In this document: in pieces, positions 249 to 21,377 of the stretch
How the letters are laid out: every line of letters starts with the position of its first letter
How positions within the stretch are numbered: the stretch's first letter is position 1
Origin: a virus
Lineage: Duplodnaviria > Heunggongvirae > Uroviricota > Caudoviricetes
DNA length: 55,008 nt
Strand: one strand, 5' to 3'
IMG/VR virus record: IMGVR_UViG_3300045988_134234
Coordinates: 1 to 55,008 of that record
Made by a program: the position numbers and the translations under genes
The notes under the pieces: model-generated
The model's input: only the letters and a program-made list of their open reading frames with translations
Database searches by the model: none
Told to the model about the DNA's origin: nothing

Positions 249-578
249 TCAGGCATTTTCTATCTCCGGTGCCGAGCCAGCGTAATCGCGAATCTTGTTT
301 CTTAGCCATGCTGCGTCAGGAAGAGTTAACGTTGTCCCGACCGGCATTTCTTCCATTTCTGACTCATGGCCCACCAGCACGCGAAATACCCAGCGCAAAT
401 CAGCGTTGCCATAGGCGCGATAGGCCGCCAGGTCTGAGCGATAAACCTCATCAATTTTTATCGTGTACTGGAAATTATCGGAGTGATACTCCGATACCCG
501 CTTGATCATCTCCTGATGGAATAGTGCGCGCAGCACATCGTCTTCAATGCATCGATCGTCGAGCCTGCTGTAACTCAT
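249..578 (-). CDS. hypothetical protein (109 aa)
   Basis: Complete ORF with RBS-like GAGGAA upstream; no recognisable motif. Confidence 0.4.
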   Translation of the reverse strand: MSYSRLDDRCIEDDVLRALFHQEMIKRVSEYHSDNFQYTIKIDEVYRSDLAAYRAYGNADLRWVFRVLVGHESEMEEMPVGTTLTLPDAAWLRNKIRDYAGSAPEIENA

Positions 579-774
579 AACAGTTCCTCACAGTCATAAC
601 CTGGGGGGAACTGTATGCAGGGTGTGAAATGCGAGAAACAGACAGGCCACCAGTTCAGGGGGATGTGGTTCATAAATCCCCTCACTGGTGACAAGTGACT
701 TTCATTAATCTTTATGCGGGGGCCAGCTTCATTGTTTGCTGGCTGTAGATTAAAAATTAAATAGTGTGAATGAC

Positions 775-16424: not shown

Positions 16425-17218
16425 CTAAAATCACTAAATTTCGCATATCAGAGATTATTGCACGCATCGAAATGTATGGACACGGCGCTGGATACACGGC
16501 GGATGAGGTATTGGAGCTTGCCCAAATAGCGTTAGCAACCTGCAAAGACGGTGAGAGTATAAAGCTGATTGACTTGTTGGTGCTGGAGCTGCCAAAGCGT
16601 GGAGGGTGGCCTGATGATGTGCTCGATTGTCGCATGGTTAGAGAGGACTGCTGTGAACCATCATATGGTTTCTTTGCTTTTGGCTCTGATCCAGCGAAAA
16701 GCCCGCGTGGGCGCAATTTTTGCCTTGAGGTCAGGCTTCCGATAAGTAACCTTGATCGCGAGGAATACACGGAAATAATTTCGCGCAAACAATACGAAGA
16801 GGCTCTTGAAGCATCCAATAAGTTAAATTTTGAGCAATGGCTGGGACAACAACGCGAAAAAATCGACCTGGACTGCGGTTGTGTGTCTACTGAAACATTC
16901 ATGCACTGGCTGCGGGTAGCCTATGAATCTGGCAACCGTCTGGATACTCATCCACAAGAGGTGCCGAAGCCAAGAGTAAGCACAACTCTGGAAAGGAGCT
17001 ATCTTGAAACTGCATTAAAGATTAAGGCAGGCCATACGCTAGGCGTCATTGATGCCATGTTGGTTCATGAAATGGCGAAGGCTTTACTACCAGAAATTCC
17101 CGCGAATACGCCTACGCAAGTTCTGGCGCTAATGAACAAACACAATCTGCCCAGGGAAGCATTCTGGTGCTTTGACCATGAACAGTGGAGATACTCATGC
17201 TATGAATGCCGGTATTAA
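16403..17218 (+). CDS. hypothetical protein (271 aa)
   Basis: ORF only. Confidence 0.45.
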   Translation: MQGNKTMTKITKFRISEIIARIEMYGHGAGYTADEVLELAQIALATCKDGESIKLIDLLVLELPKRGGWPDDVLDCRMVREDCCEPSYGFFAFGSDPAKSPRGRNFCLEVRLPISNLDREEYTEIISRKQYEEALEASNKLNFEQWLGQQREKIDLDCGCVSTETFMHWLRVAYESGNRLDTHPQEVPKPRVSTTLERSYLETALKIKAGHTLGVIDAMLVHEMAKALLPEIPANTPTQVLALMNKHNLPREAFWCFDHEQWRYSCYECRY

Positions 17219-17274
17219 TGATGACTGGTGAGCTTGTAGTTCTGGCTACCCGCAGCACCCCTGGTTACTACAAA

Positions 17275-17625
17275 TCATTGTAGTGGGTGGCATTTAACGA
17301 AATCGATCACCCTATCCTGAACTTCAGAAAGAAGGGCTTTTTCACGCGCCAGGACGTCAGGATATTGACGTTCTGGCCTTACCAGATGCCGGAGCTTCCC
17401 ATTAAGCAGAATGGCCTCAGAAAACACTTTTACGCTGTGCTTTATCCCCTCTGTTTCACTTTTCAACGTCAAAATAAAGCGCAATTGCTTATTAGCCTGA
17501 TTCAGATTCAATACACGAATTTGCAGTTCGTCTATGCTGTTTCGCAATGGGATTGATGCCACCACACTGGTGCAGTCTCTGATTGTCTGAATTGAACGGC
17601 TAACATTGAGAACGTTATTGTGCAT
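17275..17625 (-). CDS. hypothetical protein (116 aa)
   Basis: ORF on opposite strand between same-strand arrays. Confidence 0.3.
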   Translation of the reverse strand: MHNNVLNVSRSIQTIRDCTSVVASIPLRNSIDELQIRVLNLNQANKQLRFILTLKSETEGIKHSVKVFSEAILLNGKLRHLVRPERQYPDVLAREKALLSEVQDRVIDFVKCHPLQ

Positions 17626-17657
17626 GTGCCTGATCCACTAACTCCGGGAGGTTTCTT

Positions 17658-17909
17658 GTGTCAGATCGAAATATAGCAGCTAAAAGCCAGGAAGAGCGAG
17701 ACAAGGTGAACGTAGACCTTGCCGCCAGCGGCGTTGCTTACAAAGAACGCCTGAATATACCCGTGATTGCAGAGCAGGTGGCCCGTGAGCAACCGGAAAA
17801 CCTGCGCGCCTATTTCATGGAACGGCTACGGCACTACCGGCAGTTAAGCCTCCAGTTGCCAAAAGGGAGCGATCCGGTGTATCAGAACGAGGATGCACCA
17901 AAAAAATAA
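17658..17909 (+). CDS. hot: DNA polymerase III theta (HolE)-like protein, P1 Hot-like
   Basis: [43 protein letters not shown] aligns with recalled E. coli HolE ([43 protein letters not shown]). Confidence 0.75.
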
Positions 17910-18285
17910 CGGCAAGATGGGGGAGACATTAAACATGCTTAACTATCACGACAACACGCGTTCTATGCAGACAATCCGCACCAATACAGCGGTGGTCGAT
18001 AGCTTTCCTGTACATACTCAAGGCCGTGAAGATACCGTGGAAGTGCGACGCATGTTGTGTCGCCGGTCACCAGGCCACCAGCACTTCATCGTAACGTTTA
18101 AAAGCGATGTAGAGCGCGCCGAGAAAATCTCTAACTCCACATCTCTGGTTAAGCCGTTGGCGGAGGTTATTGTGCGCAACAATAAGGCGCGCTTTGTCCT
18201 TGAGGAGCATCATTCTGATTTTAATGAAAAAATTGAGTCAAGCATTTTGCAATATATGAATGGCAAGTTCACGCCACCAATGTGA
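17893..18285 (+). CDS. hypothetical protein (130 aa)
   Basis: ORF between hot-like and humD-like genes. Confidence 0.4.
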
Positions 18286-18346
18286 TTAGCCCCCAGCGTG
18301 GCGCGCGTACAAACCCCGCTTTCACAAACTATGCCTTTTCAATGTA

Positions 18347-18366
18347 TACTGTATGAATAAACAGTG
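18347..18366. promoter_or_regulatory. LexA (SOS) box-like site CTGT-N8-ACAG
   Basis: taCTGTatgaataaACAGtg about 20 nt upstream of the humD-like start. Confidence 0.5.
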
Positions 18367-18384
18367 TTATTGAGGTAAAACGCT

Positions 18385-18774
18385 ATGGGCTTCCCTTCTC
18401 CTGCTGCGGATTATGCAGAGAGCCGTATTTCTCTTGATCAGCAACTAATCAGACATCCTTCCGCGACCTACTTCATGCGGGCGGCAGACAGCCATCACCG
18501 TGAGGGAATATTGCAAGGTGCTTTGCTGGTGGTTGATTCCTCACTTACTCCGGTTGATGGTTCACTGCTTATATGCGCTATGGAGGGGGAATATCGCGTA
18601 AAAAGATACCGGAAGTATCCGCGCCAGCACCTGGAGGATTTAAGCACCGGGAAGAAAGAGGCGTTACCAGTAGATGACGATGGTTACACGGGTAGTAATG
18701 CTGTTTTTGGTGTGATCACTCATGTCATCAATGATGCCCGAAGTGGGGAGTTTGATGATTGTCCGGTCATTTAA
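18385..18774 (+). CDS. humD: UmuD-like protein (P1 HumD-like)
   Basis: [32 protein letters not shown] matches recalled UmuD ([32 protein letters not shown]); C-terminal FGVITHVI. Confidence 0.8.
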   Translation: [129 protein letters not shown]

Positions 18775-18846
18775 GCTGCAAAGTGCTGGTGCTTTATGCC
18801 TGTGAAGTTTATGATTGCGTACACATAACGAGTACACGAGGTGTTT

Positions 18847-19068
18847 ATGCAATCCATTAACTTCCGTACCGCGCGTGGCAACCTTTCTGAAGTGCTCAAC
18901 AATGTTGAAGCCGGGGAAGAGGTTGAAATCACCCGCAGAGGCCGTGAGCCAGCAGTAATTGTCAGCAAGGCTACTTTCGAAGCCTACAAAAAAGCGGCGC
19001 TGGATGCTGAATTTGCATCCCTGTTTGACACCCTGGACTCCACCAACAAGGAACTGGTTAACCGATAA
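18847..19068 (+). CDS. phd: Phd antitoxin
   Basis: [39 protein letters not shown]... matches recalled P1 Phd; ATG at Met3 of ORF 18841..19068. Confidence 0.9.
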
Positions 19069-19448
19069 TGAGGCATATATCACCGGAAGAACTTATTTCG
19101 CTTCATGATGCGAATATAAACCGCTACGGCGGCCTGCCGGGAATGTCAGATCCGGGTAGGGCTGAGGCCATTATCGGGAGAGTTCAGGCCAGAGTTGCCT
19201 ACGAAGAGATCACCGACCTTTTCGAAGTCTCCGCCACCTACCTGGTGGCTACAGCGAGAGGGCATATATTCAATGATGCCAATAAGCGTACCGCGCTAAA
19301 CAGTGCGCTGCTATTTCTACGCCGTAACGGTATACAGGTATATGATTCTCCCGTGCTGGTGGAACTTGCGGTGGGGGCTGCAACTGGTGAAATCCCCGTA
19401 TCTTCAGTAGCGGAAAAACTACGTGAACTATATGGTTCCAATATTTGA
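19068..19448 (+). CDS. doc: Doc toxin (Fic-fold)
   Basis: Fic-type [11 protein letters not shown] motif; 126 aa; translationally coupled to phd. Confidence 0.9.
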
Positions 19449-19452
19449 AAAG

Positions 19453-19478
19453 AAGCCCGCTCAACCAAGCGGGCTTCC
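19453..19478. terminator. hairpin terminator between convergent doc and TerL-like genes
   Basis: GAAGCCCGC-loop-GCGGGCTTC; T4 on minus strand. Confidence 0.5.
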
Positions 19479-19483
19479 TACTA

Positions 19484-20590
19484 TCACTCAATGATTTTTT
19501 CTGCTGTCAGCCAGCTAACTTCTTGCCTGTCTTTCGGCGGTTTTAGCATGTGGGCGTATTCAGCGACATTCTCCCACGGAATTGTTTTTGCCCACTCAAC
19601 GATAGCATTGTGATCTGCAGTGAAGAGTGGAATGGTGTGCGATTTCAACCACTCTAATGTTGTAACGCCATGTTTTTTGGCGTGGTGCTGTGCATGATGC
19701 CGGGCTATCACTAGTAATGGCATTGTCCATTCACTACCATCATGCATCGTAAAGCGCATTGTTTTCGGCATATCTGATTCAAGAACAGCCTCCCGAATAC
19801 CAGGGAACTCACCAAGAACCATACGACGGTAGTAATCGCTATTTTTACCACCATATATTTCTGCAATGTTATCAAGATAACCTTGAGAAATAATGGGGGT
19901 ATCTTCTGCGTTCAACTTGATGGCTGTATAAATACCACATGGATTTTCTTCAGATTTTGCACGACCATGATGGGAATCGTAAAAGTGTCCATGCTCCTCC
20001 TCTGAAGGAGCGGACATTAAAAGTATACGTGAATCGTCACTTACTAACGATGCTCTTAACATGCTGAATAGCCGATCGCCAGCAAGAGCCGCCTCCGTAA
20101 CAATGATTAAAAGATGTTCAGCATAATATCCACCGAAACCTTCCTCATAATTTCGGTGATATGGCTTAATTTCGCAGCCCCAATATTCCCGGTAACGATG
20201 AGTGATGCCGTTTCCGTCGACTTTAAAATATTCTCCCAGCAATGGGATTCTGTTACTGACTCTATCCCAATACGTACTTATGTATTGGATAACTTGCCTG
20301 CGACAATTATAGAACTTTGGGGAAACAATGACCGTTTTAGACTCAGGCATCAGGATTGTATAAAGAATACTAATTATAGCCATAACCGTCTTTTGGCCTA
20401 TCCCTTCAGGAGTGGTGACGCTGACTGCTGAACCTTTTTGTTGAATCGCCTCAACAATTAGCTTTTGCTGGTGGGTTAACTTAACACCCATCAACTCTTC
20501 TGCTGCTAATGCCCAGTCATGGCTATATTTGCTTACCAGCTCTCTCCACTCTGGTAATTCGGTGATGTTTTTAGGCGTCAGCATCAGCAT
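19484..20590 (-). CDS. truncated terminase-large-subunit ATPase-domain paralog with degenerate Walker motifs
   Basis: Aligns by eye to N-terminal half of window TerL 25963..27471 (HQQKLIVEAIQQKGSAVSVTT vs HQQQQIIQSVQETGSRTTVTS; YYAEHLLIIVTEAA vs EHAEHLLLILDEAS; HFYDSHHGRAKSEENP vs YFYESHHSRAKAEGNP); Walker A GHGTGKS replaced by PEGIGQK, Walker B DE by TE; no nuclease domain. Confidence 0.65.
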   Translation of the reverse strand: MLMLTPKNITELPEWRELVSKYSHDWALAAEELMGVKLTHQQKLIVEAIQQKGSAVSVTTPEGIGQKTVMAIISILYTILMPESKTVIVSPKFYNCRRQVIQYISTYWDRVSNRIPLLGEYFKVDGNGITHRYREYWGCEIKPYHRNYEEGFGGYYAEHLLIIVTEAALAGDRLFSMLRASLVSDDSRILLMSAPSEEEHGHFYDSHHGRAKSEENPCGIYTAIKLNAEDTPIISQGYLDNIAEIYGGKNSDYYRRMVLGEFPGIREAVLESDMPKTMRFTMHDGSEWTMPLLVIARHHAQHHAKKHGVTTLEWLKSHTIPLFTADHNAIVEWAKTIPWENVAEYAHMLKPPKDRQEVSWLTAEKIIE

Positions 20591-21377
20591 CCTCCGCTAC
20601 CTCTGCTTCCACATCTGCCGCGACTTCATCGGACTGTTCTTCTTTGGCCTGTTCTGCAATCGCCGCACGGCATTTCGCCCTGGCTGTGGCGATAGCCTCA
20701 ACTTTCACGTCATTAGGAATACTTGAGGTGACATACATATCCAGTTCTTCAGCACGGAATACTGTTTTGCCCAAGAATTCATCAAGCATCCAGGTTAAGG
20801 AAAAGTCGCAGGAAATCAGGTCTACTTCGCCTTCCGCGCCGTTTGGGAAATGGATAAACATCTGCTTGCCCAGGCCAAGCACGCGACAAGCTGCCATCAT
20901 TACTGCAAGTTCCAGGTCTTTGTTTTCACCTGCTACTGGTTGATCCACACCAGTAATAGTGCCGTTCAAATGGATATTATATGGCTGATATTTAGAGATG
21001 CGTTCTACACGCCATGTGCCGGTTAAGGTTCCCTGGCGGAAGATTATTGGCGTGACCGAAAGCGACAGCTCTCGAATGAGTTGTTGCGCTATGGCTGGGT
21101 CATACAGGGGATCTAACGCGATGCATCCATAAGACTGCGCCAGTTCAAACAATTCTTCCTGTGTGCACTGAATGCCTCTTGCCGTAATAAAACGTCTGAC
21201 TCCCGTTTTTCCGTCACGCCAGATAGCAATGCCATTCTCACTATCTAGCTCTTCGTCTAAGCCCAGGTATGTAAGGATGGTTCGCTCAATGGTGGCAAAG
21301 GGCAGGGACATATCATCGTTTACATCCACCAGCAGGCCGTTACGCAGGCGATATTGAATGTTCTTGGTATTTTCCAC
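20571..21377 (-). CDS. hypothetical protein with acidic C-terminal tail
   Basis: 268 aa; C-terminus EEQSDEVAADVEAEVAEDADADA; overlaps start of TerL-like gene. Confidence 0.5.
   Translation of the reverse strand: MENTKNIQYRLRNGLLVDVNDDMSLPFATIERTILTYLGLDEELDSENGIAIWRDGKTGVRRFITARGIQCTQEELFELAQSYGCIALDPLYDPAIAQQLIRELSLSVTPIIFRQGTLTGTWRVERISKYQPYNIHLNGTITGVDQPVAGENKDLELAVMMAACRVLGLGKQMFIHFPNGAEGEVDLISCDFSLTWMLDEFLGKTVFRAEELDMYVTSSIPNDVKVEAIATARAKCRAAIAEQAKEEQSDEVAADVEAEVAEDADADA

Follow-up and report, generated by a model that had tools for sequence, protein, structure and literature searches.

A putative LexA operator in front of the UmuD'-like gene humD in a D6-like phage-plasmid of the P1 family

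A 20-bp palindrome resembling a LexA box lies immediately upstream of humD, a UmuD-like gene, in the 55,008-nucleotide stretch of viral DNA that was analysed here (the window, taken at its full length). This site is very probably an operator at which the LexA protein of the host acts on the humD promoter, in a D6-like, P1-family phage-plasmid of Escherichia coli. SOS control of humD, as predicted from homology and conservation, is well supported, while LexA binding, the transcription start and inducibility by DNA damage are the steps that we infer. The original prediction had proposed that a LexA box places this UmuD analog under SOS control, and it is supported by the homology of the site to those of P1 and P7, by its overlap with a predicted promoter and by its conservation in varied gene contexts.

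An SOS box is defined as a 20-bp palindrome, TACTGT(AT)4ACAGTA, in which the trinucleotides CTG and CAG are invariant. The site at 18347..18366 (not assigned to a strand), TACTGTATGAATAAACAGTG, has this form. As read from the sequence, it contains a perfect CTGT-N8-ACAG core at 18349..18364, seven of the eight spacer bases are A or T, and 18 nt separate the end of the box from the humD start codon (ATG at 18385). The motif with its AT-rich spacer was thus found exactly where it had been predicted, and the predicted distance of about 20 nt to humD agrees with the 18 nt observed. To score the site, a Lewis-type heterology index (HI) matrix was rebuilt from the 18 LexA boxes that Table 4 of PMC3009722 lists for E. 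coli genes induced by UV; this matrix differs from the original Lewis 1994 matrix. The HI of TACTGTATGAATAAACAGTG on the rebuilt 18-site matrix is 4.68, which is better than the median proven site and falls within the range of LexA-binding sites, the 18 reference sites having HI values of 0.3-9.3, or of 0.6-12.8 (median 6.9) in a leave-one-out calculation. Published HI values for classical SOS genes extend from 1.8 (tisB) to 13 (polB), with recA at 5.0 and sulA at 5.4 (PMC11228462). In predicted strength, the box ranks with mid-to-strong operators and is comparable to the recA, sulA and dinI boxes. It carries a rare G at position 20, where the closest plasmid and 79 of the 80 viral loci compared below have A, and this single base lifts the HI from 2.6, the value of the closest relatives, to 4.7.

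The bare CTGT-N8-ACAG pattern is not significant in the 55-kb window, with two matches against 0.69 expected and at least two matches in 14 of 100 shuffles. The score of the full 20-mer, in contrast, is significant: in 500 shuffles of the 55-kb window that preserved dinucleotides, no site at 4.75 or below appeared, the lowest being 5.48. A chance palindrome was rejected on these grounds. Furthermore, when the window was scanned by HI for a second LexA site, none was found below HI 11; the second-best real site scores 11.4, leaving TACTGTATGAATAAACAGTG alone below HI 11. The other CTGT-N8-ACAG match in the window, TGCTGTAACTCATAACAGTT at 566..585, has an HI of 11.4, a score that lies at the weak edge of the known sites and inside the shuffle range. 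A minus-strand ORF of 109 aa (249..578) has its start within this match.

The position of the box relative to the humD promoter was then considered. A sigma-70 scan of 17200..19700 gave one good plus-strand match only, TTCACA-18-TATACT, which agrees with the consensus at 10 of 12 positions; PhumD is a predicted promoter, defined by this consensus match. Its predicted -35 hexamer, TTCACA, is at 18321..18326 (+), a position kept in three upstream sequence families, and its predicted -10 hexamer, TATACT, is at 18345..18350 (+). In the upstream alignment, the TATACT hexamer is kept in nearly all of 41 unique sequences, P1 itself having TGTACT. The last four bases of the predicted -10 fall inside the LexA box, which is also expected to cover the transcription start near 18357; SOS operators that block initiation are usually placed in this way. 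A Shine-Dalgarno sequence of humD, GAGG, was read from the sequence at 18372..18375 (+) and is conserved in the upstream alignment. Compared with P1 (TTGCAC/TGTACT), the proximal promoter is closer to consensus here (TTCACA/TATACT). In the P1 record (AF234172), PhumD is predicted about 440 bp upstream, inside lxr, a region that is absent from the window. No terminator was found between humD and the upstream gene orf122, so LexA-independent read-through from upstream is possible.

The gene behind this promoter, humD (18385..18774, +), encodes a 129-aa UmuD'-like protein of the S24 family without a cleavable N-terminal arm. The protein matches Pfam Peptidase_S24 (PF00717; 35.4 bits against a cut-off of 23.3) and phrog_811 (UmuD-like), its S24 fold is indicated by an alignment with UmuD' (PDB 1umu) at an E-value of 4.7e-23, and it is 97% identical to HumD of P1. 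In alignments, its residue 2 falls opposite residue 25 of full-length UmuD (8gmt_B) and residue 1 of UmuD' (1umu); HumD begins at the position of the Cys24-Gly25 cleavage site of UmuD, and the N-terminal arm is missing. No umuC-like gene lies beside humD, whose neighbours are orf122 and phd. HumD was reportedly characterised by McLenigan et al. in 1999, and in that work P1 HumD is said to complement UmuD' in SOS mutagenesis.

The region matches the P1-family phages RCS47, D6, P1, P7 and SJ46 at 91-96%. When 18 kb are compared, D6-like E. coli phage-plasmids of about 90 kb come closest, and NZ_CP104667.1 ranks first among them (97.7% identity over 89% of the query). As regards the LexA specificity of the host, the closest relatives are plasmids and phages of E. 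coli, Salmonella and Shigella. Upstream of humD and on the same strand lie hot (17658..17909, +), which encodes a homolog of the DNA polymerase III theta subunit (Pfam DNA_pol3_theta, E 2.8e-33), and orf122 (17917..18285, +), which encodes 122 aa of unknown function (phrog_2594). The latter is located between hot and humD, ends before the box and occupies the place of the divergent lxr in P1; in NZ_CP104667.1, PGAP starts it at an ATG equivalent to 17935. The hot gene is flanked by inverted, diverged paralogs at 17275..17625 (-) and 17917..18285 (+), both belonging to phrog_2594 and 36% identical over 87 aa. By comparison with RCS47, which keeps only a start-plus-end remnant of it, ATGGGGGAGAAATGTGA, orf122 is an insertion. 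Downstream of doc, D6-like genes at 19484..21377 (-) stand in place of P1 pdcA and pdcB; they encode a 368-aa protein (phrog_5902, with a weak terminase-large-subunit-like match) and a 268-aa protein (phrog_2326). A Pfam search of orf122, orf116, orf368 and orf268 gave no match. At the DNA level, nothing in the window matches the P1 pdcA-pacB-c1-coi block, and the P1 late promoter LPhot, upstream of hot, could not be aligned with the window.

The predicted gene order, humD and then phd-doc, was borne out by the Pfam domains Peptidase_S24, PhdYeFM_antitox and Fic/DOC, which follow each other in a row. The antitoxin gene phd (18847..19068, +; PhdYeFM_antitox, E 2.8e-13) and the toxin gene doc (19068..19448, +; Fic/DOC, E 3.6e-9) form a module; the two genes overlap at 19068, where phd stops and doc starts. 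This module has a conserved promoter of its own, the separate sigma-70 promoter Pphd (18787..18815, +), which was mapped from the P1 annotation by alignment, as were its -35 element TGGTGC (18787..18792, +) and its -10 element TATGAT (18810..18815, +). Just downstream of the -10, at 18816..18837 (no strand assigned), are the GTACAC repeats TGCGTACACA and GAGTACAC, identified by alignment with P1, P7 and RCS47, in which they are kept; the window has one substitution. These repeats are presumably the Phd/Doc operator, a role that we assign from the known autoregulation of phd-doc (Magnuson and Yarmolinsky). Together, Pphd and the repeat region are 98% identical to P1, P7 and RCS47. In the window (18810..18825), the Pphd -10 is TATGAT and the first GTACAC repeat is GCGTACAC, whereas P1, P7 and RCS47 have TATAAT and GTGTACAC, respectively; these changes sit in the control region of the addiction module.

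A question raised by this gene order is whether the box drives an SOS operon that runs from humD through phd-doc, so that DNA damage would alter the expression of the addiction module, as the original prediction had considered possible. We regard this as unlikely. It is true that humD, phd and doc share a strand, that the 72-nt gap between humD and phd holds no predicted intrinsic terminator (the local RNA fold being no better than that of shuffles) and that the humD-phd-doc cluster recurs as a unit in P1-like phage-plasmids. However, phd-doc possesses the sigma-70 promoter described above, which is annotated in P1 and conserved at 98% together with the adjacent operator-like repeats, and a LexA box sought within Pphd was not found. 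Moreover, the two parts of the cluster are separable: in D6 and in NZ_CP104667.1, the closest plasmid, humD and phd are separated by a 140-aa ORF, phd-doc is present and humD absent in several phages, and a note in the P1 record mentions the phd-doc segment alone, beside an unrelated hsd locus. The phd-doc promoter is autoregulated by Phd/Doc, which would buffer any extra transcription. The idea of SOS control over phd-doc therefore finds no support, and phd-doc is an independent, self-regulated module with its own conserved promoter and operator.

It is likewise quite unlikely, in our judgement, that SOS transcription from PhumD reads through the terminator-less gap into phd-doc. If such read-through were true, damage would shift the Phd:Doc balance, and plasmid addiction or growth arrest would become coupled to the SOS response; because the Pphd -10 is weaker here (TATGAT, not TATAAT) and an operator half-site is altered, read-through could contribute relatively more than in P1. 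Toxin-antitoxin or toxin loci regulated by LexA are known in E. coli, namely dinJ-yafQ, yafNO, tisB/istR, symE and hokE, and these are a precedent for SOS-controlled toxin modules. In the E. coli loci, however, the LexA box is located in the module's own promoter, whereas the box described here lies about 460 bp upstream of phd-doc, before another gene, and the promoter of phd-doc itself has no LexA box. Three of these loci, tisB, symE and hokE, appear in Table 1 of PMC11228462.

Returning to the reading of the box as a LexA operator of humD, sites at the corresponding position are annotated in the P1 and P7 records. In P1 (AF234172), a protein_bind feature 'LexA' at 87545..87564 is described as 'LexA binding site in the regulatory region of lxr and humD', and P7 (AF503408) has a LexA protein_bind feature at 94404..94423 for 'regulation of humD expression'. 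The P1 and P7 site, TACTGTATAAATGAACAGTA, aligns column for column with the window box and is identical to it at 17 of 20 bases, with substitutions at positions 9, 13 and 20. The distance from the box to the humD ATG is 18 nt here versus 19 nt in P1/P7, and phd-doc then follows in both. Judged by this alignment, the window box is the homolog of the annotated P1/P7 LexA site, a feature that is already known. The P1 site was reportedly first picked up by Lewis et al. in 1994 in a search for LexA sites; its experimental standing rests on the GenBank annotation and a secondary citation. In the literature, humD has been described as a LexA-regulated SOS gene (PMC9603915), and we found no binding or expression experiment on the exact 20-mer of the window. 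An RT-qPCR study of humD, phd and hot used thermal induction of c1.100 (PMC4713147); it was rejected as a test of SOS induction, as heat induction does not bear on LexA. According to the same paper, the coi promoter of P1 is overlapped by a LexA site (PMC4713147). In the coi region of P1 (AF234172, 92500..94800), no LexA feature is annotated and no site below HI 16 is present.

The conservation of the box was examined in a comparative set of 80 viral-contig loci, in which HumD is at least 95% identical, and of 42 loci from genomes, in which the identity is 27-91%. Every one of the 80 close loci carries a LexA box at a distance of 18-19 nt from the ATG, and 15 variants of its sequence occur. 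Their upstream contexts, at least four in total, are varied: the divergent lxr/upf94.2 is found in about 33 loci, hot lies directly upstream on the same strand in about 33, hot plus orf122 as in the window occurs in 3, and there is also a D6-type context. Since the box is kept across these varied contexts, it appears to travel with humD and not with lxr. Furthermore, the 110 nt upstream of humD fall into three unrelated sequence families, all of which converge on TT(C/G)CAC-18-TATACT plus the box. Among the 39 usable distant homologs, 35 have a box and four have none; in 21 of them the gene is preceded within 200 nt by a box with HI of 8 or below, about 15-21 or 42-45 nt away, and in 14 more the box lies 255-285 nt upstream, before a small intervening ORF. 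In the control stretches, the HI was never below 12.

These comparisons also bear on the alternative that the palindrome is kept merely as part of the humD promoter or 5' leader, or is a chance AT-rich palindrome, and that it is no binding site for LexA. Because it coincides with the -10 region, half of the box would be conserved anyway, and the close relatives are too similar for their conservation alone to weigh much. However, in a set of 48 unique sequences of the box with its flanks, CTG and ACAG never change, including the promoter-distal ACAG that lies outside the -10, whereas the central spacer between the half-sites varies. In the 21 distant loci, positions 3-5 and 16-18 reach 2.0 bits while the flanks (5' flank) are almost without information, and the boxes stand at three distances from the gene (about 18, 43 and 260 nt). 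The outcome of the 500 shuffles and the annotation of the homolog as a LexA site by GenBank curators further argue against this alternative, which we consider very unlikely. In addition, the per-position information is correlated with that of the E. coli LexA profile (Spearman 0.53, p 0.017). The pattern of variation fits LexA recognition rather than mere promoter conservation.

Two further layouts were observed at the distant loci. In about 14 enterobacterial loci (L103 1242..1872, L125 1262..1818 and about 12 others), a strong box lies 255-285 nt upstream, and a conserved ORF of 79-85 aa (MPRRNDIESAF... or MPRNYEIKTAF...) is located between it and the humD-like gene, its stop overlapping the start of that gene. 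A Pfam search of the small ORFs upstream of distant humD homologs gave no match. From its arrangement, this ORF together with the humD-like gene behind the box looks like a two-gene SOS operon. In the region about 20-65 nt upstream of the humD-like gene at L087-L091, L101 and L112, the best box is about 43 nt from the gene, and a second motif, TACTGTG..., begins four bases behind it; this suggests a tandem pair of LexA boxes, the second being a candidate. A LexA box precedes nearly all HumD-like genes of enterobacteria, in three alternative layouts, which is a modest addition to what has been described.

In P1/P7, the divergent lxr/upf94.2 lies upstream of the box, whereas the same-strand orf122 is in that place here, and as lxr is replaced by a same-strand gene the box would not be a shared divergent operator in the window. 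That the box, as in P1, mainly serves a divergent lxr ('LexA regulated function') and only incidentally humD is barely credible: the P1 annotation does assign the site to the regulatory region of both genes, but the window has no lxr, orf122 ends before the box, in about half of the 80 loci lxr is lacking and yet the spacing between box and humD is unchanged, and the promoter scan gave no minus-strand match adjoining the box.

With the box read as a host-LexA operator of humD, the following mechanism can be proposed. In an undamaged lysogen, a LexA dimer would occupy the half-sites CTGT and ACAG at 18349..18364, and because the end of the -10 (four bases) and the expected start lie within the box, bound LexA would block RNA polymerase. 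Upon DNA damage, the RecA filament would promote self-cleavage of LexA, and humD would be transcribed. HumD would be produced in the shortened, active UmuD' form with no need for RecA-mediated processing, and would pair with the host UmuC for translesion synthesis. Since HumD would already be made in the 'cleaved' form, transcription would be left as the main control point.

This arrangement would follow the same logic as the E. coli umuDC operon, in which a LexA box (operator TACTGTATATAAAAACAGTA, identical to the window box at 16 of 20 bases) also precedes a UmuD-family gene and a mutagenic polymerase subunit is kept off until DNA damage occurs. Unlike umuDC, humD encodes an already shortened UmuD' and has no umuC partner, and on account of this shortened form it would lack the second safety step of RecA-mediated cleavage. 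The predicted operator is also somewhat weaker than that of umuDC (HI 4.7 versus 0.3 on the rebuilt matrix).

For the window itself, the finding has little importance beyond correct annotation and opens no new question. Overall, P1-family phage-plasmids appear to put a pre-activated mutagenesis factor under the DNA-damage switch of the host, as already described for P1/P7, which could bear on SOS-driven mutagenesis in hosts with resistance-bearing P1-like plasmids.
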